A stretch of 34,094 bases of DNA from the NCBI GenBank assembly GCA_964362725.1, contig CAYIFO010000003.1, forward strand, positions 1 through 34,094. The letters run 5' to 3'. A program made the position numbers and the translations under genes. This DNA comes from an uncultured Candidatus Saccharibacteria bacterium (GTDB taxonomy: Bacteria; Patescibacteriota; Minisyncoccia; Phycocordibacterales; PALSA-1337). The notes under the pieces are model-generated. The model was not told where the DNA came from, made no database searches, and saw only the letters and a program-made list of their open reading frames with translations. Below are positions 1,278 through 26,321 of the stretch, one piece after another (position 1 is the first letter of the stretch; each line of letters begins with the position of its first letter).

Positions 1278-2408
1278 CTATTCAGTGATAAATCTTTTTA
1301 TAAATGGATTGATTCCAGTAGCAATGTCATCAACAATCGTATTACATTCCCTCGCGATATTCATCATTGAATTCTGGTCAGAAGAATTTCGACTGATAAC
1401 GATGACTTGAGTATTAAGCTGAACGTTCTCAATTTCCGTTATGTCAATTATCGTTGTATTCATGCTTATGATACCGATAATTTTTGCAAATTTATTGCCG
1501 ATTTTTACAACACCCTTATTAGATAGTCGTCGATCTAATCCAGTATCATAACCAACGGGTATTGTTGCTATTCTTTTCGTTGTATCTGAAATGAATGTTC
1601 CGTTGTATCCAACCTTGGATCCCGGATCGATGTCTTTTATGCCTGAGATCACAGTTGATAATTCTAGGACTGGTTTCAAATTTACAAGTGAGTCAACTTT
1701 TCCGTTGCCACTGAAACCGTACAAACCCATTCCTGCACGAGTCACGTTCGCATCAATTTTTTCCGTGTACCCATGGCCGGCCGAATTGCTTATGTGAAAA
1801 TAAGACATCTTGGGAAAATTGGTCTTGAAAATTTTAACGACACTATTCCATGCCTCAATCTGGGTATGGGTATATGCCGAATCAGAATTATTTGCGTCAG
1901 AGAAGTGAGAATAGATTCCTTCGGGAATAAGTAATGTCTGCTGTTGTATGATTTGAATTGCTCCGGACACTTGCGATAAAAAAATTCCTTGACGATGCAT
2001 GCCTGTATCGATTTTTAGATGTATATTGGTTTTTTTATGCACTTTACTGCGCAGTTCCAGAAGCATTTCAATACTGGTTATTGCGAATGATATATTACTC
2101 AATTCTGAACAATTGATCGTCTCTGCTTGTATATATCCAATTATGAGAATCGGATTTGGTACCTCGTTTTTTCTAATAGCTGAGGCTTCATCATAAGAAT
2201 CGACGACAATAAAAGAAGTTTTTTCATCTTTTAGTATACTGATTACCTCAGTCAATCCGTGTCCATACGCATTACTTTTTAATACGGGAGCAATAGCCGG
2301 TGACAATTTCTGAAATTCTCGAAGATTATTTATGAATGCACTCCTGGACAGAGTGACAATGGTATAAGGATTTGGTTGCATTTGTGTTTTTGCTACTGAA
2401 TCTAACAT
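1278..2408 (-). CDS. alr: alanine racemase
   Basis: 376 aa. 'APVLKSNAYGHG' matches the PLP-lysine motif (V-x-K-A-N-A-Y-G-H-G) at the expected N-terminal position. Length and C-terminal beta-domain layout fit Alr. Confidence 0.9.
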   Translation of the reverse strand: MLDSVAKTQMQPNPYTIVTLSRSAFINNLREFQKLSPAIAPVLKSNAYGHGLTEVISILKDEKTSFIVVDSYDEASAIRKNEVPNPILIIGYIQAETINCSELSNISFAITSIEMLLELRSKVHKKTNIHLKIDTGMHRQGIFLSQVSGAIQIIQQQTLLIPEGIYSHFSDANNSDSAYTHTQIEAWNSVVKIFKTNFPKMSYFHISNSAGHGYTEKIDANVTRAGMGLYGFSGNGKVDSLVNLKPVLELSTVISGIKDIDPGSKVGYNGTFISDTTKRIATIPVGYDTGLDRRLSNKGVVKIGNKFAKIIGIISMNTTIIDITEIENVQLNTQVIVISRNSSDQNSMMNIARECNTIVDDIATGINPFIKRFITE

Positions 2409-2442
2409 TGAGATATTTTGATATTTATACTATTATACCTGT

Positions 2443-3897
2443 ATGTCAAGCGAATTAAAAATCAAGACGATAGACAAGGAGATCACAAGTCGAAAAGCAG
2501 ATTATTCCCAGTGGTATCTCGATATCATCTCGGCCGCCGATCTTGCTGAATATGGTCCTGTAAAGGGATGTATGGTCATCAAGCCGTATGGTTATGCGCT
2601 TTGGGAAAGGACGCAACAGATCCTTAACGAAAAATTCAAAGAGACTGGTGTGCAAAATGCGTATTTTCCACTTTTTATTCCAGAAAAATATCTTAATAAA
2701 GAAAAGGAACATATAGAAGGTTTTGCGCCAGAGGTTGCGGTTGTGACACACGCTGGAGGAAAGAAGCTCGATGAACCCTTGGTTGTTCGCCCGACTTCTG
2801 AGACGATAATGTATGAGAGTTTTTCACGTTGGATACACTCATATCGAGATCTGCCTTTACTGATTAATCAGTGGGCAAATGTAGTCAGGTGGGAAATGAG
2901 GCCCCGCCTCTTTTTGCGCACTGTAGAATTTCTATGGCAGGAAGGTCATACCGTTCACGAAACTGAACAAGAAGCTGATGATCGTGCTCGAATGATGTTA
3001 GCTATATATAAAGATTTTGCTGAAAATATAATGGCCATTCCTGTCATTACCGGTACCAAATCTGAATCTGAGAAATTTGCCGGTGCATTAAGAACATATT
3101 CTCTTGAAGCAATGATGCAAGACGGAAAAGCTCTGCAATTTGCGACTTCTCATAACCTGGGTCAGAATTTTGCGAAAGCGTTCGATGTGAAGTTTCTAGA
3201 TCGAAATAGTACTGAGCAGTACGGGTGGCAAACAAGTTGGGGGTTGAGTACGCGCACGATAGGAGGTCTTATCATGACACATAGTGACGATAAAGGACTC
3301 GTGCTTCCACCAAAGATTGCCTCGATTCAAGCGGTTATCACGACCATTATTCCTTCAGAAAATGATAAAGATGTGGTAAACAACAAAGCTAAAGAACTTA
3401 ACGATCTATTGAATGCCGGTGGAGTTAGATCCCATGTTGATGTAAGGGACATGCGACCAGGAAAGAAATATTATGAGTGGGAAAAGAAAGGTGTTCCGAT
3501 TCGGATTGAACTTGGACCGAAAGATATTGCCGATGAATCCGCCATGCTTGTTCGACGTGATACGGGAGAAAAGTCAAAGGCATCTCTTAAGTCATTAGTT
3601 GAGACTGTTACATCAATGTTAAATGAGATACAACAGAACTTATTTAATCGGGCGGTTGAGTATCGTAAAACGAAGACTAAAACTGTAGATACTTGGGACG
3701 AATTCGTAAAAGCAATTGAAGAAGGAAATTTTGTTCTTGCTCATTGGTCTGGTGAAAAAGAAGTTGAAGCTCAAATCAAAGACGAGACTGGCGCTACTAT
3801 CCGATGCCTCCCTTTTGATCAAAAAGACGAAGCTGGCATATGTATAAAGACCGGTAAGCCTTCCGCAAGGAGAGTTATATTTGCCAAGTCTTACTAA
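2443..3897 (+). CDS. proS: proline--tRNA ligase, archaeal/eukaryote-like type
   Basis: 484 aa. N-terminus 'YSQWYLDII..ADL..YGPVKGCMVIKPYGYALWE' and a class II core ('FLRTVEFLWQEGHT'). There is no large editing insertion, and a C-terminal extension ends in Tyr ('FAKSY'), as in archaeal-type ProRS. Confidence 0.95.
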   Translation: MSSELKIKTIDKEITSRKADYSQWYLDIISAADLAEYGPVKGCMVIKPYGYALWERTQQILNEKFKETGVQNAYFPLFIPEKYLNKEKEHIEGFAPEVAVVTHAGGKKLDEPLVVRPTSETIMYESFSRWIHSYRDLPLLINQWANVVRWEMRPRLFLRTVEFLWQEGHTVHETEQEADDRARMMLAIYKDFAENIMAIPVITGTKSESEKFAGALRTYSLEAMMQDGKALQFATSHNLGQNFAKAFDVKFLDRNSTEQYGWQTSWGLSTRTIGGLIMTHSDDKGLVLPPKIASIQAVITTIIPSENDKDVVNNKAKELNDLLNAGGVRSHVDVRDMRPGKKYYEWEKKGVPIRIELGPKDIADESAMLVRRDTGEKSKASLKSLVETVTSMLNEIQQNLFNRAVEYRKTKTKTVDTWDEFVKAIEEGNFVLAHWSGEKEVEAQIKDETGATIRCLPFDQKDEAGICIKTGKPSARRVIFAKSY

Positions 3898-3902: not shown

Positions 3903-5069
3903 ATGTCTTTCAAGATTTCTATTCATGAGGATATATCCATAGCTGATCTGATTAAAATTCACAATGAAAAAGGCGTGGTATTGAAAACACCGCATATTGG
4001 TAATATCTATCCAAATAATCTCGCAATAGCTTCTCTGGGCATACCGATGCTCTTTTATGATCGTACTCTTGGTACGAAAGATAATAATTTTCATCCAGAC
4101 AGTCTAATCGTAGGCGGAAAAGCAGAAGAAATAGCGGATCCGAGTATATTGACTACGCATTCAAAAATCACACGACTTCCAAGTTCTATATCGCGAGAAA
4201 CACAGATCGGGACAAGTCTAGTGGATTTCCACATGTCAGCATTAAAGCGGGCGTTGCCAAAGTCATTATGTTTTACATATACGGAGTATATTCAAGAGAA
4301 TAAAAATCAAGTCCTTCAAATTTTAGAAAAAATTACTGAACTTCATCCAAATTTATGGAGTAGGATCGTTGATGAAGAAGGGAAAACTTCTAAGTCTCAA
4401 GTAAATAACTGGAATGATGTATTGAAGTTGGGTGTTTTTGGTCTGACAAATATGAAGAGTGGTTGGCTTATACCGAATCCGGTAAGCGTCCTTTTCCATG
4501 GAACAATTGATGCCGCAAAAGCTAAGGTTAAGGATGTTTATCTTTTGTCTGGTCCGGACATGTATAAATATATTGATGGTTATCAGACGGAACTCAATGA
4601 GACATATGATTATGTGAGAAAGACATCAGGTTTAAATCTTCCGGAAACGATTCATTGTCACATTATTCCAGTCATAAGTATGAGATTTATCATTGAGGAG
4701 AAATATAGGAATGCGTTAGATGAATTGGTTAGTGCATACTTAAAACATAATTCAGCCGATGAATCGATTAGAACCTTGATGAAAAATGAAATTAGGGATT
4801 TTGATGCTAAGCAATTAATTCATGAGAAACATTCAATAAAAGATGAGATTCACACTTGCATCAGAAATAAATTTGAAGCTTTTAAAACGACTATGTTTTA
4901 CGATATAGAAGAAGCTAATTGTTTTACTCAATATGATTTACTTATCAGCAGTGGTTTATATATTCACCCGTGGGCAATCAATAGTAAGCTAACTGATGTT
5001 TCCAGAGCATACGGTTTTTTAGCTGGTTGTTACTCATATGTTAGAGATAGGCTACAGGATGAGGCGTAA
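3903..5069 (+). CDS. hypothetical protein (orphan A of the proS-coupled operon)
   Basis: 388-aa uninterrupted ORF starting 5 nt after the proS stop and ending 1 nt before the next start. No family recognised. 'TPHIGNIY' near the N-terminus and 'NMKSG' about 150 aa later are only faintly HIGH/KMSKS-like. Confidence 0.6.
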   Translation: MSFKISIHEDISIADLIKIHNEKGVVLKTPHIGNIYPNNLAIASLGIPMLFYDRTLGTKDNNFHPDSLIVGGKAEEIADPSILTTHSKITRLPSSISRETQIGTSLVDFHMSALKRALPKSLCFTYTEYIQENKNQVLQILEKITELHPNLWSRIVDEEGKTSKSQVNNWNDVLKLGVFGLTNMKSGWLIPNPVSVLFHGTIDAAKAKVKDVYLLSGPDMYKYIDGYQTELNETYDYVRKTSGLNLPETIHCHIIPVISMRFIIEEKYRNALDELVSAYLKHNSADESIRTLMKNEIRDFDAKQLIHEKHSIKDEIHTCIRNKFEAFKTTMFYDIEEANCFTQYDLLISSGLYIHPWAINSKLTDVSRAYGFLAGCYSYVRDRLQDEA

Positions 5070-5834
5070 TTGAACAAAAATATGTCGATGGAATATGATC
5101 CAATTTTATATGATTCTGACCCGAGACCATTTCTCAAGGATGAGGTGGCATTTTATGTGAAACTTGTTGAAAGATTCAGACCAAAAACAATACTCGAACT
5201 TGGCGTAGGTACGGGCAGAATATTCTCCAAACTTCTTCCGTTGGTTAAATCCGGCGTTGGAATTGATATATCAGAGACTATGCTGGATAGGTGTCGAAAA
5301 GTGTGTGCTGAAAATCATAACTATAAATTATACAAGTTAAGTTTCGTGGATTTTGATTTGCAGACGACGTTCGATCTTATCTATTTACCCTTTAATACTT
5401 TTCAGCATTTACTTACTGAAGGAGACCAGATGGCGTGTCTGAAAAATATCAGAAATCACATGCATGGCAAAAGCCATTTTATTCTGGACTTAATGAATGG
5501 CGATAATCTTTCTTTTGATCTTGAACAATGGAAGCAAGATTATTCAACCATATTACCATCTGGAGATATTTTACAACGAGACCAAAAGACGGTTGGTGTT
5601 GATAAGGTAACCTCGATTGTTCAAAAAAAATTTAGGTACACAGAGACTGTTAAAGGCGCAATGGATAAGGTACAAGAATTTGACGCCTTAATGAAAATAA
5701 ACCCCAATAAAAAGATACATGAAATTTTAGAGAAATTAGGTTTTGAGATAGAAGGCATTTGGTCTGATTATTTATTTGGCCATGACACAGATACTAAAAA
5801 GATGATTTATTGCTTAAAAACTCATGAAATTTAA
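5070..5834 (+). CDS. class I SAM-dependent methyltransferase
   Basis: 'ILELGVGTGR' is the glycine-rich SAM-binding motif I, followed by 'GIDISETM' (acidic motif II) and 'LIYLPFNTFQH'. The start is uncertain: TTG 5070, ATG 5082 or ATG 5088. Confidence 0.8.
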   Translation: MNKNMSMEYDPILYDSDPRPFLKDEVAFYVKLVERFRPKTILELGVGTGRIFSKLLPLVKSGVGIDISETMLDRCRKVCAENHNYKLYKLSFVDFDLQTTFDLIYLPFNTFQHLLTEGDQMACLKNIRNHMHGKSHFILDLMNGDNLSFDLEQWKQDYSTILPSGDILQRDQKTVGVDKVTSIVQKKFRYTETVKGAMDKVQEFDALMKINPNKKIHEILEKLGFEIEGIWSDYLFGHDTDTKKMIYCLKTHEI

Positions 5835-7128
5835 ACCGGTACCGATCAAGCTTGGGAAAGGGCACACGGTTACCTCCTTGTACCACAGTCCTTTCGATTT
5901 CAACCTGCTATATTTAATTTGCCTTGCCAAGACGGGACTCAAGTTAAAGATAGTCATAGACGACATTGATAATATCGGTATTGATAAGAGTAATTCGGAT
6001 TTGACATATCACTATGGTGAGAGATTTTTTATGAGTAAGACTGAAAGAACAAATGTAAGGCCATTATCTTTCGTCATGCCCAAGCATCTATTGGCGAATC
6101 TGTCATACCCAGCCCTCAAAGAACTTGATTCAAAGGTCGGTATAGCTACGATAAAACAACACTTCAAATATGAGGATACTGTTGAACATTGGATTAAGGA
6201 TGTCACTAATAGTCTCGGATCTTTTTCTCTTGTTGGACCTAATAGAGCCTTCGCTTTCTCTGTAATTGATGATAGCTTTATTCAATCTCTTAGACAGGCG
6301 AAATGTAATATCATCTCGATGTTGAGAAGATTTCCGGAGCAAAGTGACAGCGCGATTGATTTTATTGAATGGCTTCTGAATGAAGAATTTATGCAAGTCG
6401 GCATCAAGATTTCAGATTATTATGTCTCACTGTTACAAAGAATAGTCAGTAAGTTTGAGTTAGATGATAATATCGTTATCCAAAGAATGTCTGATTTGGA
6501 TATTCAGGGTAAGACGAGACAGCTTTTGGATATTTTCAATAATGATGAATCACTACGCGAAACGTATAAGAATGCTCTTGCGTACGAAGGAAGAAAGAGT
6601 CAGGATGATTTTCCATTCTATGCGATATCAAAAGCGAGCGGTGAACGATTATTACCAGTAGACAATTACATAAGCAATCCGACAGATTATTTGCTAGCTC
6701 CAAAAGTCCTAATGCTTAATAATTTTGAAAATCTTGTTTTGCCATTTCATGCCATAGAAAGTAAGAATGTTTGGGCTAGAGAAATAATGTATCAAAATAA
6801 GATGGTAAACTGCAATCAGATCTTTTGTGATGAAAAGTGGGTAAACAAGCTATCTTCATTCGGATTCAATATTAGACTTGATGATGAAGAGCAAAGAATT
6901 TATGGTGTAAATAGTCTGAATACATCTTATTTCAACGAACTTCTTGAAAATGGACAGAATATGTATGAAGACGGCCAAAACATTGAAGAAAAGTATAAGG
7001 GATGGATGATTACTTCGACTTTCAAGGCAATGGATAGGATGAAATACCCATTGATATTTATGGCACTACTTCAGGAAAAGACTTTTTTGACTGATATTCC
7101 AGAGTTTTATAAATTAATACCATGTTAA
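5824..7128 (+). CDS. hypothetical protein (orphan C of the proS-coupled operon)
   Basis: 434-aa ORF. Its ATG overlaps the methyltransferase 3' end by 11 nt, and its stop overlaps the next start (ATGTTAA). No motif recognised. Confidence 0.6.
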   Translation: MKFKPVPIKLGKGHTVTSLYHSPFDFNLLYLICLAKTGLKLKIVIDDIDNIGIDKSNSDLTYHYGERFFMSKTERTNVRPLSFVMPKHLLANLSYPALKELDSKVGIATIKQHFKYEDTVEHWIKDVTNSLGSFSLVGPNRAFAFSVIDDSFIQSLRQAKCNIISMLRRFPEQSDSAIDFIEWLLNEEFMQVGIKISDYYVSLLQRIVSKFELDDNIVIQRMSDLDIQGKTRQLLDIFNNDESLRETYKNALAYEGRKSQDDFPFYAISKASGERLLPVDNYISNPTDYLLAPKVLMLNNFENLVLPFHAIESKNVWAREIMYQNKMVNCNQIFCDEKWVNKLSSFGFNIRLDDEEQRIYGVNSLNTSYFNELLENGQNMYEDGQNIEEKYKGWMITSTFKAMDRMKYPLIFMALLQEKTFLTDIPEFYKLIPC

Positions 7129-8423
7129 ATCTTCTTGAAAAAACTGCCACGGCTTTAATCAGGAAATTTAGTCCTATGGTTATATGTGTTACTGGAAGTG
7201 TAGGTAAGACATCGACTAAAGAAGCGATAGCTTGCACACTATCAACCTCATTTAGAATTAGGAAGACATCGCGTAATTATAATAATGATTTTGGCGTGCC
7301 AATATCTGTGATCGGCGGTTTTGAATCCGAGGAAGGCTTTTTGTCATTGTGCACCATACTTGCTTATGGCTTGTGGCAGTTATATTTTGGAGCAAGATTT
7401 CCTGAAATTTTGATAATAGAAGTCGGTGCAGGTAAAGTGGGAGAAATTGAAAGGATTGCAAAATGGCTTAAGCCGAACATAGTCTTGGTAACTAATCTTC
7501 CTCATATTCCATCCCATCTTGGGGTTTTTGGCTCAAAAGAGATGCTGATTAAAGAAAAGAAATTTCTCATCAGTGCTATGGATAAAGACGGTGTACTTAT
7601 AATCGATAAAGATGAAGCTAATATCGAGCACTTTTATGGGGATTTTCCAGGTAAAATAATCTTTTGCAATGGAGATAAGTTTATCAAAGATGGTAATTAT
7701 GAAATCACATATAGGCATAAGGATAATTTTACTTTACCGATCGGTTTCAATATCGAAGTTCGTTTAGATAATCCTAATAAGAGGAGTATTACGTTCGCAG
7801 GCTTTTTGGGTATTCAAAATATGAAGGCTATTGATATGGCTATTTTGGTGGCCAAACATCTGAATTGTACTGCCGATAAGATTCAATTAGGATTACAGAA
7901 GTATAGACCGCAAAGTGGCCGCCTTAGAATAATTCCTGAACAGAATACTAGTATAATCGTACTGGATGATACATTTAACGCATCACCATATGCAGTCGAA
8001 AATTCAGTCAATACTCTAATATCCCTGAAGAAATCTGATGATCAAAGACGGATTGCAGTCCTAGGAGATATGCTAAATTTAGGAAAAGAGACAGAAAACA
8101 TCCACAGAGAGACTGCTATTGAGGTAATCCCCAAAGTGGATATTCTTATAACTGTGGGAAATGTATCGAAAGTGTGGCAAGAATTTAATGCGGACATTCA
8201 CCATCTAAACAAACATTTTAAAAATTCTCTAAACGCGGCACACTATATTGAGAATATCCAAAAAGAAGGAGATTTGATTCTTTTTAAAGGTGGACACCTG
8301 ACTCGTCTGGAAAAGGCTGTAGCTTTTCTTACAAAATGTCCATCGGATTATCTTGTTCGTCAAGAAACATATTACAATACGCATGAGTTAGATCTGAATC
8401 CAATATCAGCCGACCATGAATAA
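7122..8423 (+). CDS. Mur ligase family protein, MurF-like but lacking the N-terminal UDP-binding domain
   Basis: P-loop 'VTGSVGKTSTKE' sits at residues ~23-34. 'NYNNDFGVPIS' (MurF N-x-NN-x-IGVP signature), 'DDTFNASP' (MurF DDTYNANP) and 'IAVLGDMLNLG' are also present. In canonical MurF the P-loop follows an N-terminal domain of roughly 80-100 aa, which is absent here. Confidence 0.8.
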   Translation: MLNLLEKTATALIRKFSPMVICVTGSVGKTSTKEAIACTLSTSFRIRKTSRNYNNDFGVPISVIGGFESEEGFLSLCTILAYGLWQLYFGARFPEILIIEVGAGKVGEIERIAKWLKPNIVLVTNLPHIPSHLGVFGSKEMLIKEKKFLISAMDKDGVLIIDKDEANIEHFYGDFPGKIIFCNGDKFIKDGNYEITYRHKDNFTLPIGFNIEVRLDNPNKRSITFAGFLGIQNMKAIDMAILVAKHLNCTADKIQLGLQKYRPQSGRLRIIPEQNTSIIVLDDTFNASPYAVENSVNTLISLKKSDDQRRIAVLGDMLNLGKETENIHRETAIEVIPKVDILITVGNVSKVWQEFNADIHHLNKHFKNSLNAAHYIENIQKEGDLILFKGGHLTRLEKAVAFLTKCPSDYLVRQETYYNTHELDLNPISADHE

Positions 8424-9399
8424 AAATAAGTCAAAAATTACTCCCATTTTACGACAATTGGCCGACCTGTATGGTCGTGAATTTTGTGTAATGGATCACG
8501 ATCTGGATGCCGGATACATCGTAGGTCTTGACGGGATTAGGCACTATTTTTCTTATGGCACTCTAGATTTGAACAATAATGCGGCTACTGAATTTTCGGG
8601 TAGCAAGATTCTGTCTTCAGAAATCGTTTCGACGGCAGGTATCAGAGTTCCGAAAGAGGAAACAGTTAGCAATTCAAATAATGTAAAAGATGGTATTCGC
8701 ATTGCCTTGAAGACTGTCGGGGTGCCGGCGATAATCAAGCCTGTACATGGTGCGCAAGGCAAGAATGTCTTTAGAATAGATTCGATCGATGAGTTAGATC
8801 TGATTTTAGGTGATAATGATTTTGATGCTGATGACGTGATCGTTCAGGAATATATTGATGCTCCAACTGAAATCAGAGTCGTATTACTAGATGGTGAGAT
8901 TATTCAAGCCTATAAGAGAGATTATTCACATATTATCGGCGACGGAGTGACTACGATAAAGGGACTGATTGAAAAAAGAAACAAATCCTTTCAGGATAGG
9001 AAGCGAAATACTTGTATTGATTTAATTGATAGCCAGTTAACGGTAATTCTTAAACGACATAAATATGATCTAGGTTTCGTATTACCTAAGGATGAACGGC
9101 TCAATATATCTTACGGGCGTAATCTATCGCGTGGTGGGGAATATGAATTTATTCCTAACCGGCTTAGTTCGACAGTCGAGAAAGTCTCAAAAAAGATTGC
9201 AAATGTTTCTGCACTACGTCTTGTTGGGATTGATCTGTTTATTTTAGGTGATGTCGAATCAATAGACCGTGAGGATCAGATTGTATTCATTGAGTATAAT
9301 GCGTCACCTGACATGGAAAACAATTTTTATTACGATACTGACTATAGTGAGCAATTACTTGCTATCTACGAGAAGATATTTACTAAATTAATAAACTAG
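8416..9399 (+). CDS. ATP-grasp ligase, RimK/cyanophycin synthetase/GshF-like
   Basis: 'AIIKPVHGAQGKNVFRI' (ATP-grasp K-P-x-x-G-x-x-G), 'VIVQEYID..TEIRVVLLDGEII' and 'YSHIIGDGVTTIKGLIEKRN'. The last resembles the 'AHV(V/I)GDG..TI.ELI...N' block of CphA/GshF-type ATP-grasp domains. It does not look like Ddl (no S-S-x-G motif). The ATG overlaps the upstream stop (ATGAATAA). Confidence 0.8.
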   Translation: MNKNKSKITPILRQLADLYGREFCVMDHDLDAGYIVGLDGIRHYFSYGTLDLNNNAATEFSGSKILSSEIVSTAGIRVPKEETVSNSNNVKDGIRIALKTVGVPAIIKPVHGAQGKNVFRIDSIDELDLILGDNDFDADDVIVQEYIDAPTEIRVVLLDGEIIQAYKRDYSHIIGDGVTTIKGLIEKRNKSFQDRKRNTCIDLIDSQLTVILKRHKYDLGFVLPKDERLNISYGRNLSRGGEYEFIPNRLSSTVEKVSKKIANVSALRLVGIDLFILGDVESIDREDQIVFIEYNASPDMENNFYYDTDYSEQLLAIYEKIFTKLIN

Positions 9400-9533: not shown

Positions 9534-9785
9534 ATGGAAAAACTGAATTCCCAAATCGTTATATATAAAGACAAAAACGGAAAAATCAAGATAGATGTTC
9601 GTTTTGATGGCGACACGGTGTGGTTGACACAGGACACTATCGCAACCCTCTACGGCAAGGGTCGTTCGACGGTGACCGAGCATATCCAAAATATCTTTCA
9701 GGAAGGAGAATTGGATGAAAAAGTGGTATGTCGGGAATTCCGACGAATTGGCGCCGATGGCAAGGAATATCTCGTCAAATACTAC
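9534..9785 (+). pseudogene. RhuM-family protein, N-terminal fragment (about 84 codons)
   Basis: 'IVIYKDKNGKIKIDVRFDGDTVWLTQDTIATLYGKGRSTVTEHIQNIFQEGEL..VCREFRRIGADGKEYLVKYY' matches the N-terminal region of RhuM-family proteins. Similarity stops abruptly after 'KYY', where the frame runs into unrelated residues. Confidence 0.55.
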
Positions 9786-10030
9786 ATTTTTATAATCCAG
9801 AAGACGAATTTTCTGTCTTATCTACCATATCTATTCCCTCGATAACCATTATGGGCAAAAAGGATGGAGCTTTGAGTATTCCCGTCGAACAGACAATGGA
9901 AAGAATTAAAAAAGCGATGACTAATTCAAAAAGAGTTGAAACTGTAATTCTAGGAGACGCTAATCATCAATATGATGACTATCAGCAAGAATTGGCTGAT
10001 ACTGTAAAAACATGGATTCAAATAATGTAA
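9786..10030 (+). pseudogene. alpha/beta hydrolase, C-terminal fragment
   Basis: In a different frame from the RhuM fragment: 'ISIPSITIMGKKDGALSIP....VETVILGDANHQY...TVKTWI'. This has the typical last beta-strands, the G-x-x-D loop and the catalytic-His region of alpha/beta hydrolases. There is no N-terminal nucleophile-elbow part upstream. Confidence 0.5.
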
Positions 10031-13426: not shown

Positions 13427-14185
13427 ATGGATAAAAAGATTACATTCACATCGCAACCTTTGGGATTATATACGAAGGATCAGATAAATCAGGATTGGAA
13501 TAATCCCCCAAGAATCATGGGCGCTGATAGTGGTAGGTGTAACATCGTCGAAGACCCATTAGACAAATCGCGACATGTATTTGAAATCAAATATCCAAAA
13601 GGAAAAATTGGCCAAGAAGAACATGGTGGGGGCGCACAATGGAGGTTTAAATTTGATAAATCATATTTGAAGTGTACGATTGAGTATCAGGTTATGTTTC
13701 CGGCTGGTTTTGATTTTGTTAAAGGAGGAAAATTGCCAGGTTTATGTGGAGGTACTTCACCGGCTGGAGGCAAGAAGTCGGATGGATCAGATGGTTTTTC
13801 AGCCAGAATTATGTGGCGGGAGAGAGGTGAGATATTTCAATATATGTACTGGATGGAGAGAGCTCAAGAGAAGAATTGGGGCGATGATTTTCCTTGGAAG
13901 GATCTTGAGTCAAAAGAACAAAAGTCTTTCGGGTTTATTCCAGGTCAGTGGCATACGCTTAAAACTGAAATTACCATGAATGCGCCAGGCGAAAGAGATG
14001 GTCAGATCATATCCTGGTTAGATGGTAAACTTGCTCTTGATCAAAAGGGAGCATTTAGAGCAAAAGGAGCTACTTTTGGGATTGATTCATTCAACTTCAC
14101 GACTTTCTTTGGCGGCAATATGCCAGATTGGGCACCGACAAAAGATGAGGTGGCGTATTTTGCGGATTTTGTTATTAAGGGGTAG
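13427..14185 (+). CDS. polysaccharide lyase family 14-like protein
   Basis: 'FVKGGKLPGLCGG....GGKKSDGSDGFSARIMWRERGEIFQYMYW' resembles the 'GGKLPGL.GG ... FS.R.MWR..G..Y.Y' core that I recall for PL14 / Polysacc_lyase domains. There is no N-terminal signal peptide or TM segment. Confidence 0.55.
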   Translation: MDKKITFTSQPLGLYTKDQINQDWNNPPRIMGADSGRCNIVEDPLDKSRHVFEIKYPKGKIGQEEHGGGAQWRFKFDKSYLKCTIEYQVMFPAGFDFVKGGKLPGLCGGTSPAGGKKSDGSDGFSARIMWRERGEIFQYMYWMERAQEKNWGDDFPWKDLESKEQKSFGFIPGQWHTLKTEITMNAPGERDGQIISWLDGKLALDQKGAFRAKGATFGIDSFNFTTFFGGNMPDWAPTKDEVAYFADFVIKG

Positions 14186-14298: not shown

Positions 14299-14694
14299 AT
14301 GATTCACATTAAGTACAAATTGGATCGATCATCGAAACATGGCATCGGTCTATTTGCAGATGAAAATATAAGGAAAGGAACACTTGTTTATACTTCTAGC
14401 CCTGCGCTTGATGTAAATATTACTCAGGAGCAATTTGATGTATTAGAGGAAAAAGAGAAGCAAGAAATTCGCTGGTGGGGATTTTTTGATAAGCAGGCTC
14501 ATAAATGGCATGTTGATTTTGATGTATCACATTTTATAAATCATTCAGAAGAAGGGACGGTGACACAGGATACCAAGTACAAAGATGCATATCTTATAAC
14601 AACAAGGGATATAGAAAAAGGTGAGGAGTTGACGCAAAATTATCTAGAATTTGAGAGTAAAGATGATCTCAAGGCAAGAGGGATTAATATCTAA
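14299..14694 (+). CDS. minimal SET-domain protein (putative lysine methyltransferase)
   Basis: 131 aa. 'KHGIGLFADENIRKGTLVY' (SET N-terminal G-x-G), 'HFINHSEEG' (N-H-S pseudoknot motif) and 'RDIEKGEELTQNY' (G-E-E-L-x-x-x-Y). No post-SET Cys cluster. Confidence 0.8.
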   Translation: MIHIKYKLDRSSKHGIGLFADENIRKGTLVYTSSPALDVNITQEQFDVLEEKEKQEIRWWGFFDKQAHKWHVDFDVSHFINHSEEGTVTQDTKYKDAYLITTRDIEKGEELTQNYLEFESKDDLKARGINI

Positions 14695-14743
14695 ATGTTC
14701 ATTTCAAGTGGAAACTGTGATGGATATATGTTTTTAACAAAAT

Positions 14744-15304
14744 ATGATAAACATCGATTGGTCAGAATACTATAAAGGAACAGTCGGGAATCCACCTCAT
14801 CCGTTGCTTGTAAAAGCTCTTACTTATATGCAAAGCAGAGACAAGGCAATAGATATTGGTGCTGGCGCCCTTAATGAAACGAGATATCTGCTCGAACAAG
14901 GTTTTGATGTTACTACTGTCGATCAGAGTTCGCTTGTGGAACAAGAAGTTAAGCGTACGGGATCTCCAAAGCTGCACGCATTTACTGTTTCGTTTGAAGA
15001 CTTCGATTTTCCCAAAGACACCTATGACCTTGCGATGGCAATGTTCGCTTTGCCATTTATGGAGGATCATTTTAGTGATGTATTTGCGAAGATAAAGTTA
15101 TCGCTCAAAAAAGGTGGTGTTTTCTGCGGTCAATTTTTCGGCAATCGAGATCAGAGGAAAAACAACACAAACAGGACCTTTCATACCAAGGAGCAAGTAA
15201 TGGAACTTCTGGACGATCTTGCGGTATTGTCATTTGAGGAGGAAGAAAGATTGAAGGGAAATATGAACGCACATATATTTCATGTTATAGCGAGGAGGAA
15301 ATAG
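14744..15304 (+). CDS. class I SAM-dependent methyltransferase
   Basis: 'AIDIGAGALNETRYLLEQGFDVTTVDQS' gives motif I plus the acidic motif II residue, followed by 'YDLAMAMFALPF' and 'LKKGGVF'. 186 aa, a small-molecule MT-like size. Confidence 0.8.
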   Translation: MINIDWSEYYKGTVGNPPHPLLVKALTYMQSRDKAIDIGAGALNETRYLLEQGFDVTTVDQSSLVEQEVKRTGSPKLHAFTVSFEDFDFPKDTYDLAMAMFALPFMEDHFSDVFAKIKLSLKKGGVFCGQFFGNRDQRKNNTNRTFHTKEQVMELLDDLAVLSFEEEERLKGNMNAHIFHVIARRK

Positions 15305-15317
15305 CCGGCATAATCTT

Positions 15318-16028
15318 ATGAGAATAGCTACTTATCTAAACACGACACCAGATGAAGTTCAAAAGAAAAGCCACAATATATGGCTAGGTATAAGTCTTGG
15401 AAATAAATATTTTACAAAAGAGAATATCGCAGAATATATAAAATGGGCTATGAATAATACTAAAAACGAAGTCTTGGTCGTAATAGCTGACGCTTTACAT
15501 GCTGTTAATTTGGAAGTGTTAGATAAACGAAGTCCTGAACATGCGTTAAGAAAAGCGATGAAGATTGGTGATGATAAAGATAGGGAGATCCGAGAAATTA
15601 TCGCTACCCTGCAACCAAATGATCGAAATAAAGTTCGTTTAGTAAGATGGGATGATGTGACTCAAAATGAGATCTATAAATATAATCTGAAGGCGATAAA
15701 AGATGAATTTGTTAGTGATAAAGAATTCCACGATTTCATGACAAATATTGTAGTCGATGGAAGAAATGATCGGACAGCGAGCATTTCCAAAATGTCCCGA
15801 GAAGAATTAGACAGATTGTCAGACTATGTACTTTATGAATTACCACTTTTCGTGAATGGGGTACATATCCAGGGTAGTGATCTGGTTTATACACTATTGC
15901 CATATCCGGGTTTGAATAAATTGGATGATCTAAGCATTGGCCTTTCAAACAGGACTATGTTTCCACATTTAGCTGAAAAATTGCATTTATCAAATCACAT
16001 AGGCATCGTCGAGGCGTACACTGACTAA
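15318..16028 (+). CDS. tRNA-dependent cyclodipeptide synthase (CDPS)
   Basis: 236 aa. 'HNIWLGISLGNKYFTKENI..YIKWA' resembles the AlbC-type 'ALIGISAGNSYFS..N...LL.WA' block holding the catalytic Ser. 'YVLYELPLF' resembles the 'YVLAEAPLF' Tyr-x3-Glu block. 'LLPYPG' gives a Y-P pair (XYP-subfamily-like). Alignment is from memory. Confidence 0.72.
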   Translation: MRIATYLNTTPDEVQKKSHNIWLGISLGNKYFTKENIAEYIKWAMNNTKNEVLVVIADALHAVNLEVLDKRSPEHALRKAMKIGDDKDREIREIIATLQPNDRNKVRLVRWDDVTQNEIYKYNLKAIKDEFVSDKEFHDFMTNIVVDGRNDRTASISKMSREELDRLSDYVLYELPLFVNGVHIQGSDLVYTLLPYPGLNKLDDLSIGLSNRTMFPHLAEKLHLSNHIGIVEAYTD

Positions 16029-16382
16029 ATATGGTAATCAAGGCTTAAATCCATGCGGAAGTAGTGGAATTAAAAAGTTACCGGTGGCTTTGAACTCGGC
16101 TCTTGAAATTCTTTGCTAAGATTCCATTTTATCTACGATTGTCCACAAATAATCTGCTACAATACGACCATGAGTCCCGTTAACCTCCGCCAAAGAGCCC
16201 TAGAAATACTCAAAAACACTCACCTCACTTTGGTCTCCAACTCGAAGGCAATGCTGTGCGCTTGGAAGGTGTAAGATTTGATCTTATTATCAAACATTGG
16301 ACCAAGAGAAGTCATCGGGTGGTTATTCTTCCTGATGCATCCTGACAAAGAAGCTCCATGAGACTAATAAAATTATTAAAAT

Positions 16383-16901
16383 ATGAACCAAAATTTGGAA
16401 ATAAAGAAATCAAAAATTGCCGGAAAAGGCGTTTTCTCAAAAAATAAAATCAACCAAGGTCAAACTATCTGTTTTCTTACTGGAGAATTATGTTCCTTGG
16501 AAGAAGTCTTAAAGAGAGTTGATGAGGGTCGAGAAGAACCGTCGGATCCTCTCGGGGTCGATGATGAAAAATATTTGGACTTGGATGAAATATCTAGAAC
16601 TTTTAACCATTCATGCGAACCCAACTCTTATATAAGAGGCCAGAATGAATTGGTGGCGATTCGGAACATAAGTGGCGGGGAAGAGATAACATATGATTAT
16701 TCAACGACCATGAATGATAACGAGGAGAAGATTATCAAAGCCGGCCGAAATCTTTGGACATGCAAGTGTTATTGCGGAAGTGATAAATGTCGAGGAAAAA
16801 TTGATCAGTTCAAAACTTTACCAAAAAATGTTCAGTCATATTATATTGATAATAAATTGATGCCCAATTTTATGCTAAAAGTTTTTGCATCAACTGATTA
16901 G
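16383..16901 (+). CDS. SET-domain methyltransferase with post-SET Cys cluster
   Basis: 'IAGKGVFSKNKINQGQTI', 'FNHSCEPNSY', 'ISGGEEITYDY' and post-SET 'CKCYCGSDKCRG'. This is a canonical SET plus post-SET architecture in 172 aa. Confidence 0.85.
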   Translation: MNQNLEIKKSKIAGKGVFSKNKINQGQTICFLTGELCSLEEVLKRVDEGREEPSDPLGVDDEKYLDLDEISRTFNHSCEPNSYIRGQNELVAIRNISGGEEITYDYSTTMNDNEEKIIKAGRNLWTCKCYCGSDKCRGKIDQFKTLPKNVQSYYIDNKLMPNFMLKVFASTD

Positions 16902-17891: not shown

Positions 17892-20117
17892 CTATCTAAT
17901 CCTGATCGAGACTGCGTTTGAATAAGCCGACTCTTTTCCGGTCTGACTGTTCACGGCCTTGACCCGATAATAGTATGTGCCGCTTGTTAAGGACTCGGAA
18001 TACTTCGTGACGTTGCTTCCGACGGTACCGACGACTAGGTAGGAAGGCACGGCATTTCTGCCTTTGGCCGCCAAAGCCCGTTCGATAACGAATCCGGTTT
18101 CATTGTTTGAATTGTCAGTCCAGAGGAGTGTGGCGGTATTTTGCAGGGCGCTGACGCTGATCGATGCCGGTGGGTTGATAATATTGGGGTCGGTGACAGT
18201 TATAAGCACGCTGGCGCTGACCTTGGCGCCGGAATTATCGGTAACAGTCAGAGTGGTCGTGAAATTGCCCGCCTGGGAGTATGTGTGCAGAGCGATCGGT
18301 TCTGAAGAAGTTGTTCCATCCCCGAAATCCCAGAAATAGGCCACAATAGTACCATCTACATCCTTTGAATCGGTACCGATCAGGGCCGTGGAAAAAGGAA
18401 CCGTTCCGCTCGTGGAAGTGGCGATTATAATAGCGGTCGGTGCTACATTACCCGATCCAAAATCATAATCGATATAGGCATAATCTTGGGCCGCGTCGAT
18501 AGTCTTTGGAACGATGTTATAGGAGAGAATTTTGTTTTTTGCCAGATCGATGAGGTTGAAAGATTGAAGAGTTGTTGGGCTCAAAGCGGTCGAATCATAG
18601 GTGTTGAGAAAATAGCGTCGCGGGCCGCTCACACCTGATACCAGATCAGTGAAATCAAGATAGAATGTGCCGCTCCTCTCCACTGTTCCACCATCATAGG
18701 CATAGGCGCCACCGGCTCTGGCCAGGACTCTATTGGTGCTCCAGATGGTCGTCGGTGTCATTGAATCGGTTGTCGATAGGCCGAGACTCATAACCAATTC
18801 GTTGCGTTTGAGGTTCTTGACGGTAAATTCGGCCAGAACCTGCGGTGTATAGTTAGTCAAAGGGGTGATCCAGACCGCTTCGTCATACCAGAATATGCCT
18901 TCACCGGTATAAGAGGGATTGCGCGTACGCAGGGCTTGATAAGCGATCCATGCAAAACCGCTTTCATTCCAGGTCGAGCCCCAGGAATTGGCTATGCGCA
19001 AAGCACCTTTTTCGTTTGAATCAACCAAACCGTTTAGATTGAGATCGACCCAGATATTATCGTCATAGCCGACGATAGTCATGGCATGTGCGCCAGCTGT
19101 GCCACTGACCGAAGTAACAATTCTCTTTCCAACAAAAGAGTCGTCCGCGGCGTTTTGCAGATCATTGCCGATTGTTTTCCAAACCCAGGAATTTATATAG
19201 GTGGCATAGTTGAGGACATAGCCGTTTACCAAGAGTTGTTTAACTTGAGTCAGACCGGTTTCGGTATCGACATCCAGCACTTTACCGACTTTATCAACCT
19301 GCATATTGATGGCTGATTTCCAGACTTCGGAATCAAGGCTCCAGGCGCGATAGTTTCCGTCATAGGGGAATTGAGCCCAGGTCGCCAAACCGTGTTTTTG
19401 GGCTATGGCAAAAGCCTCGAAATATGTGCTACCGACATTTGCCCCTCCGTTGACCATGTTGTAGGTCCATTTTGGAGAAAAGCGAAACATGTCGCCTCCG
19501 TTTTTGGCATCCAAATCGCGAGCCATCGCGTTCATATGAGTAAAGGTATAGTAGACGCCCGCAAACTGGGCGCAAGAGTTCAAGGAGCCCTGACTGCGGA
19601 TAGGAGGAAAATATTTGAGCGTGCTGTTATCGACGCCGAAAACCTCCGCGGTTACCAGTATTTCGGCCGTCTGGCCGGTGACATCGGCTATTGGCCCGGC
19701 GCCGACCGCACCTTCCACTTCCTGGCCTTGCGGTGCTATCTCAATGTCTCTTTCATTGAGAACCTGCTTGCCATGCTTGACTCGCTCGGCGTTGACGCGA
19801 TCAAAACCAAGTTTGTTCAGTTTGACTTTTTTTGTTTTAAGGACGTTTTTTTCAATCCAGTCAGTTTGTTCGCTATTGGGTCTGGTCGCGCCGGTCCCAA
19901 GTAGTTCGTCACCGATTCTTTCCAAGGATGTTTCACTGGAAGTAAAAGAACCGTCTATTGTTGCCGCCAGATTGTCAGAAATCGCAAGAGGGGCGGGGAT
20001 TTGCGTAACCACAGGACTTGACCGGGTCCGGTTCAAGGCGACAATGTAATATTCTGAAACTAGGAGACTGATCATAATGATCAGCATCAGTCCAACGATT
20101 TTAATGTTTTTCATCAT
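17892..20117 (-). CDS. secreted/anchored papain-like (C1 family) cysteine peptidase with PKD and fibronectin type III domains
   Basis: N-terminal hydrophobic segment 'IVGLMLIIMISLLV'. Catalytic blocks 'RSQGSLNSCAQFAG' (Q...C), 'GAHAMTIVGYDDN' (His) and 'ANSWGSTWNESGFAWIAY' (N-S-W). PKD signature 'FWDFGDGTTS...TLTVTDNSG'. C-terminal Fn3-like 'LLWTDNSNNETGFVIER...YYYRVKAVN'. Confidence 0.85.
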   Translation of the reverse strand: MMKNIKIVGLMLIIMISLLVSEYYIVALNRTRSSPVVTQIPAPLAISDNLAATIDGSFTSSETSLERIGDELLGTGATRPNSEQTDWIEKNVLKTKKVKLNKLGFDRVNAERVKHGKQVLNERDIEIAPQGQEVEGAVGAGPIADVTGQTAEILVTAEVFGVDNSTLKYFPPIRSQGSLNSCAQFAGVYYTFTHMNAMARDLDAKNGGDMFRFSPKWTYNMVNGGANVGSTYFEAFAIAQKHGLATWAQFPYDGNYRAWSLDSEVWKSAINMQVDKVGKVLDVDTETGLTQVKQLLVNGYVLNYATYINSWVWKTIGNDLQNAADDSFVGKRIVTSVSGTAGAHAMTIVGYDDNIWVDLNLNGLVDSNEKGALRIANSWGSTWNESGFAWIAYQALRTRNPSYTGEGIFWYDEAVWITPLTNYTPQVLAEFTVKNLKRNELVMSLGLSTTDSMTPTTIWSTNRVLARAGGAYAYDGGTVERSGTFYLDFTDLVSGVSGPRRYFLNTYDSTALSPTTLQSFNLIDLAKNKILSYNIVPKTIDAAQDYAYIDYDFGSGNVAPTAIIIATSTSGTVPFSTALIGTDSKDVDGTIVAYFWDFGDGTTSSEPIALHTYSQAGNFTTTLTVTDNSGAKVSASVLITVTDPNIINPPASISVSALQNTATLLWTDNSNNETGFVIERALAAKGRNAVPSYLVVGTVGSNVTKYSESLTSGTYYYRVKAVNSQTGKESAYSNAVSIRIR

Positions 20118-20499: not shown

Positions 20500-20528
20500 A
20501 AATTTTATTGGCCATAATCTCCAACATC

Positions 20529-22868: not shown

Positions 22869-22872
22869 TTCC

Positions 22873-23916: not shown

Positions 23917-23931
23917 TATAATCTATAAATA

Positions 23932-24321
23932 ATGAAAACTATTATTTTATCCATTGTTGTCGCCGTAGCCTTTATTAGTGGAGCGATTATTATTTCCAAG
24001 AATGGTGATCGAAGCCAGGTCAATTCGGGTGGGAACAATGTCTCAATAGAAAATGGCAAGCAGATTATCGAAATTACGGCCAAAGGTGGATATCAGCCTA
24101 GGAAAAGTTTGGCTAAAGCCGGTTTGCCCACAGTCATTCGTTTTAACACCGAAGGCACTTTTGACTGTTCATCTTCCATTCGAATCCCTAGCTTGAAGAT
24201 TTCAAAATATTTACCCCAGACTGGTACAACTGATATCTATATAGGCACACCAGAGGCTTCGACTTTACGCGGTTCTTGCGGCATGGGCATGTATTCTTTT
24301 GAGGTTGAATTTGAGCTATAA
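23932..24321 (+). CDS. membrane-anchored cupredoxin-like domain protein
   Basis: 129 aa with an N-terminal TM anchor. The beta-rich domain 'IEITAKGGYQP....VIRFNTEGTFDCSSSIRIP....GSCGMGMYSFEVEF' has Cys/Met ligand candidates. This type of protein commonly accompanies HMA-permease genes. Confidence 0.6.
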   Translation: MKTIILSIVVAVAFISGAIIISKNGDRSQVNSGGNNVSIENGKQIIEITAKGGYQPRKSLAKAGLPTVIRFNTEGTFDCSSSIRIPSLKISKYLPQTGTTDIYIGTPEASTLRGSCGMGMYSFEVEFEL

Positions 24322-26256: not shown

Positions 26257-26269
26257 GTACTTCACGACA

Positions 26270-26295
26270 AAAACCGCTCCTCACCAGACGGTTTT
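26270..26295 (+). terminator. weak intercistronic hairpin / partial terminator
   Basis: AAAACCG, a 12-nt loop, CGGTTTT, then T, lying between the binding-protein gene and livH. There are only three G:C pairs, so at best this is an attenuating structure. Confidence 0.3.
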
Positions 26296-26321
26296 TGTTG
26301 TATAGTAAAGGAGAAAGTTTT

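Follow-up and report, generated by a model that had tools for sequence, protein, structure and literature searches.

A proS-linked operon of Patescibacteria that may encode an accessory multi-ligase pathway to a short N-methylated peptide

Cyanophycin synthetase (CphA1) is a single polypeptide with N, G and M domains, in which a G-domain-type ATP-grasp ligase is paired with a Mur-type ligase. The MurF-Ddl-Alr branch that leads to D-Ala-D-Ala likewise combines a ligase of the MurF family with an ATP-grasp enzyme and a racemase for alanine. Operons of ddl and murF and fusions of MurF with Alr are known, and accessory murF copies occur in glycopeptide-resistance or producer clusters. The pairing of a ligase with an amino-acid racemase is seen in the Aslfm/Racfm-type systems, which ligate D-amino acids to side chains in the cell walls of Gram-positive bacteria; the M19 enzymes are L-Xaa-D-Xaa dipeptidases. 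The HUP-class adenylate-forming ligases comprise the class I aminoacyl-tRNA synthetase (aaRS) core, PanC and MshC. Enzymes of the CcbJ family (CorZ/BytZ of myxarylin, CcbJ of celesticetin, and CypM) transfer a methyl group to small peptides, at a free N-terminal or a secondary amine (PMC12951456, PMC11447909).

The operon that is compared with these systems here lies in a window of 34,094 nucleotides, the whole stretch of DNA analysed, from an uncultured Candidatus Saccharibacteria bacterium. Its features are:

1278..2408, minus strand: alr, alanine racemase, divergent from proS and 34 nt apart from it
2408..2436, plus strand: candidate sigma-70-like promoter (TTGAGA-17-TATTAT), 6 nt upstream of the proS ATG
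2443..3897, plus strand: proS, prolyl-tRNA synthetase (ProRS), family I (archaeal/eukaryotic type); opens the operon
3903..5069, plus strand: protein A, 388 aa, without a Pfam or NCBIfam family; 5 nt gap after proS
5070..5834, plus strand: MT, class I SAM-dependent methyltransferase; 0 nt gap after A
5824..7128, plus strand: protein C, 434 aa, of an undescribed family; 11 nt overlap with MT
7122..8423, plus strand: Mur ligase (“MurF2”), MurF-type without domain 1; 7 nt overlap with C
8416..9399, plus strand: ATP-grasp ligase of the cyanophycin-synthetase-G/GshF/RimK type, 327 aa; 8 nt overlap with the Mur ligase

Re-reading of the boundaries from proS to the ATP-grasp gene from the open reading frames (ORFs) reproduced exactly the gaps of 5 and 0 nt and the overlaps of 11, 7 and 8 nt claimed in a preliminary description of this DNA. 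The 0 nt gap before the MT depends on a TTG start, which has a Shine–Dalgarno-like box (GGATGAGG) 6 nt upstream. The first ATG of the MT is at 5082, and its use widens the gap to A to 12 nt. The match before proS is the top sigma-70-like match of the region (10/12); as the region holds no more such matches in total than shuffled sequences do, it is only a pointer to a promoter.

The order proS-A-MT-C-Mur ligase-ATP-grasp, with similar overlaps, is found in at least five independent lineages of Patescibacteria, and on at least 14 contigs A is joined by both C and the Mur ligase. In four of the loci (L002, L004, L006 and L097) the order is kept by proteins that are only 42–83% identical to those of the window. 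The MT overlaps C by 11–14 nt in these loci, the boundary between C and the Mur ligase ranges from -4 to +1 nt, and the Mur ligase overlaps the ATP-grasp gene by 8–20 nt. The recurrence of order and overlaps despite this divergence shows that the packing is not due to chance. This bears out the earlier view of a translationally coupled operon, the five genes of which co-occur across related genomes. A search of the operon with the PADLOC protein models for anti-phage defence gave only a generic methyltransferase match and noise.

The proS gene is recognized in the NCBIfam profile search by TIGR00408 (607 bits, cutoff 437) and adjoins the system in every carrier found, including the rearranged variant L096. 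From this constant linkage, the pathway may draw on proline or Pro-tRNA. Not one of 100 bootstrap trees recovers the operon-linked ProRSs as a monophyletic group. The alr gene (TIGR00492, 258 bits, cutoff 168) holds the same divergent position in L002, L003 and L006 and is absent from L004, where a serine recombinase occupies its place. The divergent alr and the persistent link to proS had not been mentioned in the preliminary description, nor had the conserved module of MT and C or the association of A with racemases.

All motifs quoted earlier were located: NYNNDFGVP, DDTFNASP and the P-loop TGSVGKTS (residues 24–31) in the Mur ligase, and HIIGDGVTTIKGLIEKRN. In the Mur ligase, only the Mur_ligase_M (PF08245) and Mur_ligase_C (PF02875) domains are detected, and the N-terminal UDP-binding domain 1 is absent. 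The NCBIfam models give 214 bits for murF (TIGR01143), at most 36 for MurC, MurD and MurE, and 24.9 for CphA (TIGR02068). The murF score lies under the curated cutoff of 288.6, as do those of the dcw-type MurFs of Patescibacteria (242–256 bits). As the top PDB matches are also all MurF structures, the protein is, by profile and structure comparison, a true member of the MurF family. The loss of domain 1 had been taken as a sign of a special role. The loss is real, but it does not discriminate the operon gene, since the standard MurF of Patescibacteria equally lacks this domain, with its P-loop at about residue 33 in hundreds of clusters, including those that come directly after mraZ-rsmH-ftsI.

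In the phylogeny, the operon Mur ligases form a monophyletic clade on a long stem inside the Patescibacteria MurF radiation. They and the dcw MurFs share 41 invariant and 66 conserved columns, among them the LVRQE tail at the C-terminus. The clade has 16 switches of its own; radical switches at otherwise fixed positions are W76L, D104G, E134G and S391G. None of six carrier loci has the gene in the dcw cluster, whereas the standard MurF follows mraZ-rsmH-ftsI in about 70 of 80 Patescibacteria genomes. The family is also small: about 31 clusters, compared with about 3000 MurF-like matches. The separate long-branch clade, the location outside the dcw cluster and the patchy distribution indicate that the ligase is probably a paralogue rather than the dcw housekeeping copy, and the earlier doubt that it is the housekeeping MurF is probably justified.

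The ATP-grasp protein matches the NCBIfam model cya_phycin_syn (TIGR02068) with 114 bits over model positions 204–447. Its best PDB match is CphA1 (7lg5) at 3e-18, as against 3e-3 for DdlB. The Ddl signature is absent, with 19.1 bits for PF07478 (cutoff 24) and 32 bits for NF002378 (cutoff 243). Judged by these scores, the protein groups with the CphA G-domain, GshF and RimK, closest to the first, and not with Ddl, as had been proposed.

The operon thus resembles CphA1 in pairing a G-domain-type ATP-grasp enzyme with a Mur-type ligase. It differs in encoding the two ligases as individual proteins, M before G, and in adding a methyltransferase and two other proteins. Nothing among the operon proteins matched the N-terminal domain of CphA. 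The idea of a split cyanophycin synthetase was rejected as homology because the Mur ligase derives from MurF and is no relative of the CphA M-domain (214 against 24.9 bits). Cyanophycin synthetase would serve as a loose mechanistic analogy only. Of the earlier interpretation as a whole, the operon, the co-occurrence and the type of the ATP-grasp enzyme have stood, and the domain-1 argument and the kinship with the M-domain have not.

The MT has the class I SAM fold (Methyltransf_25 in Pfam, 5e-13), and its best NCBIfam match, the daptide methyltransferase, scores 57 bits, under the cutoff of 175. Among solved structures, CorZ (9SOT, 1.6e-15), CcbJ (4HGY, 7e-11) and CypM come nearest, with a similarity of only 45–61 bits that falls mainly in the SAM-binding half. 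By these matches, the MT is probably an amine (alpha-N) methyltransferase. It differs from the CcbJ family in its setting, as no conserved RiPP precursor was found downstream of the operon.

Protein C gives no match in Pfam or NCBIfam. Its family amounts to 32 clusters among 5.8e9 proteins, with only 12 matches among 1.84e9 representatives. The AF2 model is confident (pLDDT 93.3), and Foldseek detected no solved-structure relative for it (best E 0.25 in the PDB and 0.49 in BFVD). The conserved motifs are DDxDNxG, GPD/N and PFYxIxKxxGxR. Protein C is always paired with an MT, even in distant gene clusters, where the MTs are homologous (E 7e-24). These clusters look biosynthetic; one of them also contains an aminotransferase, an amidohydrolase, IPMS-like and FemAB-like enzymes, an MT::GNAT protein and an MFS transporter.

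The family of protein A, which likewise has no match in Pfam or NCBIfam, comprises 68 clusters, all of them from Patescibacteria wherever the source names the organism. Its AF2 model (pLDDT 93) finds GluRS, ArgRS and PanC as best Foldseek matches, which are weak (E 5.8e-3, prob 0.84, TM about 0.25), and the profile gave no sequence-level match against the PDB. The invariant H31-x-G33-N34 (HxGN) lies between strand 25–28 and helix 37–44, that is, after a beta strand at the HIGH site of the HUP-class ligases. Unlike these, A has no canonical KMSKS, with an invariant SGPDM at 216–220 instead, and no anticodon-binding domain. The model points to a putative HUP-type (class-I-aaRS/PanC-like) adenylating ligase. 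The genes beside distant homologues of A encode a racemase (MurI-like or Asp-type), an M19 dipeptidase or a prolyl aminopeptidase. In gene neighbourhood, this putative pairing of ligase and racemase recalls the Aslfm/Racfm-type systems; A differs in not being an ATP-grasp enzyme.

From the observed gene identities, families, synteny and distribution, the substrates, the order of steps and a cell-wall target can be inferred as follows. Stepwise ATP-dependent ligation would assemble or remodel a short peptide without the ribosome or an NRPS. Alr would supply D-Ala, and the CphA-G-type ATP-grasp enzyme would build or lengthen a di- or oligopeptide at a C-terminal alpha-carboxylate, with an acyl phosphate as the intermediate. 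The MurF paralogue would attach an amino acid or a dipeptide to an acceptor with a carboxylate; given the descent of the enzyme from the Patescibacteria MurF, this acceptor would most likely be a UDP-MurNAc-peptide-like cell-wall precursor. As a HUP-type adenylating ligase, A may handle a racemase-derived D-amino acid. The MT would methylate a free amine, and C, which represents a new family, could be an enzyme that depends on Mg-nucleotide and acts on the same intermediate.

The preferred reading is held tentatively, at a little under an even chance: an accessory, NRPS-independent multi-ligase pathway, linked to proS and restricted to Patescibacteria, that leads to a short N-methylated peptide with D-Ala. 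It draws on the conserved operon, the MurF2 clade and its patchiness, the type of the ATP-grasp enzyme, the HxGN motif and racemase context of A, the kin of the MT and the pairing of MT with C. Counted against it are that no exporter, flippase, acceptor or product of the pathway was identified, that the fold matches behind the role given to A are weak and those for C lacking, that an N-methylated amine cannot itself serve as the MurF nucleophile, and that the proS linkage could instead be inherited synteny. Distant relatives of C stand beside MFS exporters and amino-acid-making enzymes, a setting that suits a free small molecule better than a cell-wall product.

It is conceivable, if unlikely, that the operon is a small-molecule cluster unrelated to the cell wall. 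Four ligase-like enzymes and an N-methyltransferase would then yield a free product, either an N-methyl peptide or a conjugate of amino acids, that acts for example as antimetabolite, signal or osmolyte, with proS as a source of Pro-tRNA or a resistant target copy. This would suit the biosynthetic-looking clusters that hold relatives of C and the MT (one with aminotransferase, IPMS-like, MFS and FemAB-like genes), the likeness of the MT to natural-product alpha-N-methyltransferases, the cyclodipeptide synthase cluster also within the window, and the serine recombinases that adjoin the operon in L002 and L004. Since bacterial-type ProRS is present in other Patescibacteria, the family-I gene of the operon may be an additional proS. 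However, the operon has no exporter, its Mur ligase is closely derived from the cell-wall MurF, and the context is peptidoglycan-related, with alr, MurI-like racemases beside the homologues of A and an S66 LD-carboxypeptidase at the rearranged locus L096.

A rather improbable alternative is the housekeeping D-Ala branch, with the operon gene as the sole MurF of its carriers, relocated from dcw to the side of alr. The ATP-grasp enzyme would be a non-orthologous D-Ala-D-Ala (or D-Ala-D-X) ligase, and A, MT and C would modify the stem peptide. An alr, a murF and a dipeptide-forming ATP-grasp enzyme are exactly the set of that branch, the MurF-Alr fusion model NF008897 appears in the NCBIfam search, and the Mur ligase retains the catalytic and family-specific residues, including every residue common to the Patescibacteria MurFs. 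Among the best 120 of 3020 MurF-like matches, carrier contigs show only the operon copy, which is uninformative on a second murF. Against this branch, the ATP-grasp enzyme is not Ddl-like, the Mur gene stands outside dcw in a divergent, long-stemmed clade with its four radical switches, and the family is very small. Close ProRS relatives (62–72% identity) have no operon downstream of proS, which makes the operon dispensable or mobile. The operon also departs from the known D-Ala branch in its coupling to A, MT, C and proS.

A split cyanophycin-synthetase-like polymerase, with the ATP-grasp enzyme lengthening a poly-amino-acid backbone and the Mur ligase adding to the side chains, is very improbable: the CphA G domain is the nearest relative of the former, and the Mur/ATP-grasp overlap in all carriers would fit a complex, but the Mur ligase prefers the murF model, the primer-binding N-terminal domain is missing, the 327-aa ATP-grasp protein spans only CphA positions 204–447, and MT, A and C have no role in cyanophycin synthesis.

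The known carriers of the operon are a few dozen ultra-small bacteria (CPR/Patescibacteria) of about 30 lineages, and the operon is most likely accessory and restricted to Patescibacteria. Its product in these bacteria may well be a short methylated peptide rather than a part of routine cell-wall work.

The operon under study consists of a proS gene followed by the genes for protein A, a SAM-dependent methyltransferase (MT), protein C, a Mur ligase (MurF2) and an ATP-grasp enzyme, with an alanine racemase gene (alr) lying divergently upstream. The gene coordinates and tight boundaries reported in the preliminary description are borne out by the ORF list and the sequence, and the motifs that it quoted are all present.

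Genes of the operon and its divergent neighbour
1278-2408, reverse strand: alr, alanine racemase (TIGR00492, 258 bits), 34 nt from proS and in the opposite direction
2443-3897, forward strand: proS, from the ORF list and sequence
3903-5069, forward strand: protein A, 5 nt after proS
5070-5834, forward strand: MT, 0 nt after A, given a TTG start
5824-7128, forward strand: protein C, overlapping MT by 11 nt
7122-8423, forward strand: Mur ligase, overlapping C by 7 nt
8416-9399, forward strand: ATP-grasp enzyme, overlapping the Mur ligase by 8 nt

A GGATGAGG box lies 6 nt before the TTG start of MT, whose first ATG is at 5082. The top promoter-like match of the region (2408-2436) falls in the short gap between alr and proS; overall, the promoter and terminator scans of the region give counts no better than those of shuffled sequences. 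As to RNA leaders, the window contains no Rfam matches and no tRNAs. A RiPP reading was rejected because the small downstream ORFs (9534-10030) are unconserved in other carriers of the operon, and a defence-system reading because a PADLOC search returned no match.

By every sequence test, the Mur ligase of the operon is a MurF. It scores 214 bits against TIGR01143 (murF), at most 36 against MurC, MurD and MurE, 24.9 against the cyanophycin synthetase model and 15.5 against PgsB, and its strong PDB matches are MurF in every case. The preliminary description had singled it out as a MurF-like ligase without domain 1, the N-terminal Mur-ligase domain. The domain is indeed missing, but this is not distinctive, as its absence is the rule in the MurFs of the phylum. 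The next-best homologues are of approximately 431 amino acids, with 31-40% identity and a P-loop near residue 33, and make up about 90 clusters among the best 120 of 3020 matches. Standard patescibacterial MurFs score 242-256 bits, under the curated murF cutoff of 288.6. For annotation purposes, MurF in Patescibacteria should thus be expected to lack domain 1 and to fall under this cutoff. The standard gene lies directly behind mraZ-rsmH-(ftsL)-ftsI in L010, one of the loci compared with the window, and in approximately 70 of 80 GTDB Patescibacteria loci; in none of the 80 does A or C occur within 10 kb of it. In a neighbour-joining tree, the operon-type Mur ligases form one monophyletic, long-stemmed clade inside the patescibacterial MurF radiation. 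The two types have 41 invariant and 66 conserved columns in common, the C-terminal LVRQE tail included, and the operon clade carries 16 specific switches, of which the radical ones include W76L, D104G, E134G and S391G. The MurF scores, shared columns, separate clade and specific switches together argue for a MurF-type ligase that is functional but shifted, either a paralogue or a relocated, accelerated orthologue.

The ATP-grasp enzyme is of the cyanophycin synthetase (CphA) type rather than a Ddl, in agreement with the preliminary description. In NCBIfam it scores highest (114 bits) on the G-domain part of the cyanophycin synthetase model, at positions 204-447; N-acetylglutaminylglutamine synthetase, RimK and GshAB follow, and Ddl models reach at most 32 bits. 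The same order is seen in the PDB, where CphA1 (7lg5) is the best match at 3e-18 against 3e-3 for DdlB. Enzymes of this ATP-grasp group join an amino acid to a C-terminal alpha-carboxylate via an acyl-phosphate.

Protein A matches no Pfam or NCBIfam family, and sequence profiles of A and of C find no match in the PDB. The AF2 model of A is confident (pLDDT 93), and in Foldseek the PDB entries closest to it are pantothenate synthetase and the class I aaRS cores of GluRS and ArgRS, at a weak level (E 5.8e-3, probability 0.84, TM approximately 0.25). An invariant H31-x-G33(-N34) lies between the strand at 25-28 and the helix at 37-44, the place of the HIGH motif, and the likewise invariant SGPDM at 216-220 follows a strand. 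Kinship between A and C was rejected, since hhalign shows a shared “GPD” motif alone (probability 0.6%). Distant homologues of A (25-38% identity) occur outside this operon type. In the compared loci L007 (10001-14572) and L009 (10001-12972), their neighbours are an M19 dipeptidase and a MurI-like glutamate racemase, with two A paralogues around this pair in L007. In L008 (10001-12821), there is a 4-nt overlap between the A gene and an Asp-type racemase gene, and a prolyl aminopeptidase is next. With alr beside the operon of the window, there are three settings in which A is linked with an amino-acid racemase. A may be a ligase that works by adenylation and takes a D-amino acid as its substrate.

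MT is a class I SAM enzyme whose nearest characterised relatives are amine methyltransferases, namely CorZ (9SOT, 1.6e-15) and CcbJ (4HGY, 7e-11); it also matches the NCBIfam daptide methyltransferase. The substrate of CorZ is the tripeptide myxarylin, whose free N-terminus it methylates (PMC12951456), and CcbJ gives its name to an alpha-N-methyltransferase family that includes CypM (PMC11447909). The AF2 model of C is also confident (pLDDT 93.3), and its fold search gives best E-values of 0.25 in the PDB and 0.49 in BFVD, so that no fold can be assigned. Scattered matches to CDPS, CysRS, MshC and TyrRS lie inside the noise and are a mere hint. C may be a Mg-nucleotide-dependent enzyme, as suggested by its conserved DDxDNxG, GPD/N and PFYxIxKxxGxR motifs and its many conserved Arg and Lys residues. 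It has four distant full-length relatives at approximately 23% identity; of the three whose loci were inspected, two again have a homologous MT nearby. MT of the window matches that of L091 with an E-value of 7e-24.

Other loci with relatives of C
L091, GC 30%: C paralogue, MT, C', SDR
L093: MFS, C'''
L094, 703-11398, GC 32%, not CPR-like: aminotransferase, IPMS/homocitrate-synthase-like protein, amidohydrolase, C paralogue, MT::GNAT, MFS, FemAB-like protein and C'', tightly overlapping
L096, a CPR (patescibacterial) variant: MT, C, GNAT, U32-like protein, ProRS, S66 LD-carboxypeptidase and histidine phosphatase, without Mur ligase or ATP-grasp enzyme

From its recurrence in the settings of L091, L094 and L096, the pair of MT and C is a conserved two-enzyme module that joins different partners. 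The L094 cluster is itself likely an undescribed small-molecule pathway that uses this module.

The genes of the operon do co-occur in other genomes. The full order (alr<)proS-A-MT-C-Mur-grasp is found in L002/L003, L004/L005 (without alr), L006 and L097, with proteins at 42-83% identity to those of the window. The synteny is confined to the operon block, with nothing shared beyond it. Across carriers, the MT to C overlap is kept at 11-14 nt, the C to Mur junction at -4 to +1 nt and the Mur to grasp overlap at 8-20 nt. The C family comprises 32 clusters in a search of 5.8 billion proteins, and HMMER, run exhaustively on 1.84 billion representatives, gave 12 matches. There are approximately 36 operon-type clusters of A and 30 more distant ones, and approximately 31 clusters of the operon-type Mur ligase among the best 120 of 3020 matches listed. 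When contigs are paired by their lengths, A and C share 21 of them, and both occur with the Mur ligase on 14. Homologues of A and C are labelled Parcubacteria, Moranbacteria, Uhrbacteria or plain “bacterium”, which places the source of the window among CPR/Patescibacteria. An identical Mur ligase is encoded in Hainich groundwater, on an 8-kb contig of a 0.1-µm-filtered metagenome. The papers searched contain no description of this operon or of a CPR MurF without domain 1. Large serine recombinase genes lie downstream of the operon in L002 (16213-17541, reverse strand) and upstream in L004 (4579-5898, reverse strand), there at the usual place of alr and alongside an HTH_17 excisionase-like gene (6377-6589). 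Both are 0.7-2.6 kb from the operon, which hints at mobility or an integration hotspot.

The remainder of the window has further content of its own. A cyclodipeptide synthase gene (15318-16028; Pfam CDPS, 2e-22) has a SET-domain gene on either side (14299-14694 and 16383-16901) and also adjoins a class I methyltransferase gene (14744-15304), and the stretch 14299-16901 is possibly a tRNA-dependent cyclodipeptide cluster in a CPR-like genome. At 17892-20117, on the reverse strand, a 741-amino acid protein with a papain-like C1 peptidase and PKD domains is encoded in a patch with a GC content of 0.49-0.51, against approximately 0.38 nearby; horizontal transfer is a possible source of the gene. 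The locus at 25126-31706 encodes a Liv-type ABC transporter with three substrate-binding protein genes, and between its two permease genes lies an AAA_14/DUF4143 ATPase gene (27328-28470). The stretches 13427-14185 and 20508-24321 hold a polysaccharide lyase family 14 gene and a copper-handling block of P-type ATPase, HMA-DsbD-like protein and cupredoxin, both unusual for a minimal CPR genome.

The proS gene of the operon encodes a bona fide family-I ProRS (607 bits), and a ProRS adjoins the system in every carrier seen, the rearranged L096 included. Among 80 loci with close ProRS relatives, the operon occurs in L097 only (77% identity). In L099-L107 (ProRS 59-72% identity) there is no trace of it downstream of proS; L098 (72%) is uninformative, as its sequence stops 236 nt past proS. 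The operon-linked ProRSs are monophyletic in 0 of 100 bootstrap neighbour-joining trees, and the four closest (window, L002, L097 and L006) in 2 of 100. The operon is therefore patchy with respect to proS, yet always beside it. Two histories are compatible with this pattern: proS and the operon were an ancestral unit from which the operon was lost repeatedly, or the unit moved as a whole. The use of proS as a molecular clock was rejected, given that family-I ProRSs are approximately 54% identical even across bacteria that appear unrelated by source names and GC content. Patescibacteria have two types of ProRS, and some of those with the standard MurF of the cell-wall and division (dcw) cluster have the bacterial family-II enzyme instead. 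This is seen in some Parcubacteria (L032, L037 and L038), 8-10 kb upstream of the dcw cluster; all operon carriers have family I.

The best-placed reading, still a tentative one, is that the operon is an accessory multi-ligase pathway that makes or remodels a short, N-methylated, D-Ala-containing peptide, with a MurF paralogue most likely still acting on a UDP-MurNAc-peptide-like acceptor. It is unlikely that the operon is instead a cluster for a free small molecule, with proS as a supplier or resistant copy. It is possible that carriers have an extra, dedicated proS copy, and the proline hints (ProRS, the prolyl aminopeptidase by an A homologue and the CcbJ-like MT) are suggestive only. That the operon is a relocated housekeeping D-Ala branch appears improbable. 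As regards a second murF in carriers, a separate matter, a genome-contig scan with the Mur alignment gave only standard MurFs (27-35% identity) and no carrier genome among the best 600 listed, and no second Mur ligase lies on a carrier contig among the best 120 of 3020 matches. A tetranucleotide comparison did not link the window to any dcw-bearing locus. The split cyanophycin-like polymerase of the preliminary description can be given very little credence, as the operon falls outside CphA on the M and N domains, and it is left only as an analogy for possible cooperation between the ATP-grasp enzyme and the Mur ligase.

The accessory multi-ligase pathway can be extended into a joint reading of all the genes, which is speculative and rather doubtful. 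The MurF paralogue, the CphA-G-type ATP-grasp enzyme, the HUP/class-I-aaRS-like A and the new-fold C would be four mechanistically different ATP-dependent ligases, working in one line without NRPS or ribosome and with a dedicated alpha-N-methyltransferase. Coupling to ProRS would be via prolyl-adenylate or Pro-tRNA, or by way of a proS copy that is resistant or dedicated. Such a line would yield an N-methyl Pro/D-Ala peptide on or from the cell-wall precursor of these ultra-small bacteria. Were this assembly line real, A and C would be the founders of two new amide-ligase families.

The genomes of Patescibacteria are minimal, little is understood of their envelopes, and the organisms are not culturable alone. 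With such genomes and envelopes, six conserved genes devoted to peptide ligation probably do something of importance. If the accessory pathway is real, a MurF paralogue would have come to serve a new substrate, a Mur ligase would work alongside a free-standing relative of the cyanophycin synthetase G domain, and two enzyme families without a Pfam model would be involved. One of these, C, has a confident predicted fold without a PDB relative and is present too in biosynthetic-looking clusters outside CPR. The operon would then open cell-wall or small-peptide chemistry of Patescibacteria to concrete tests.
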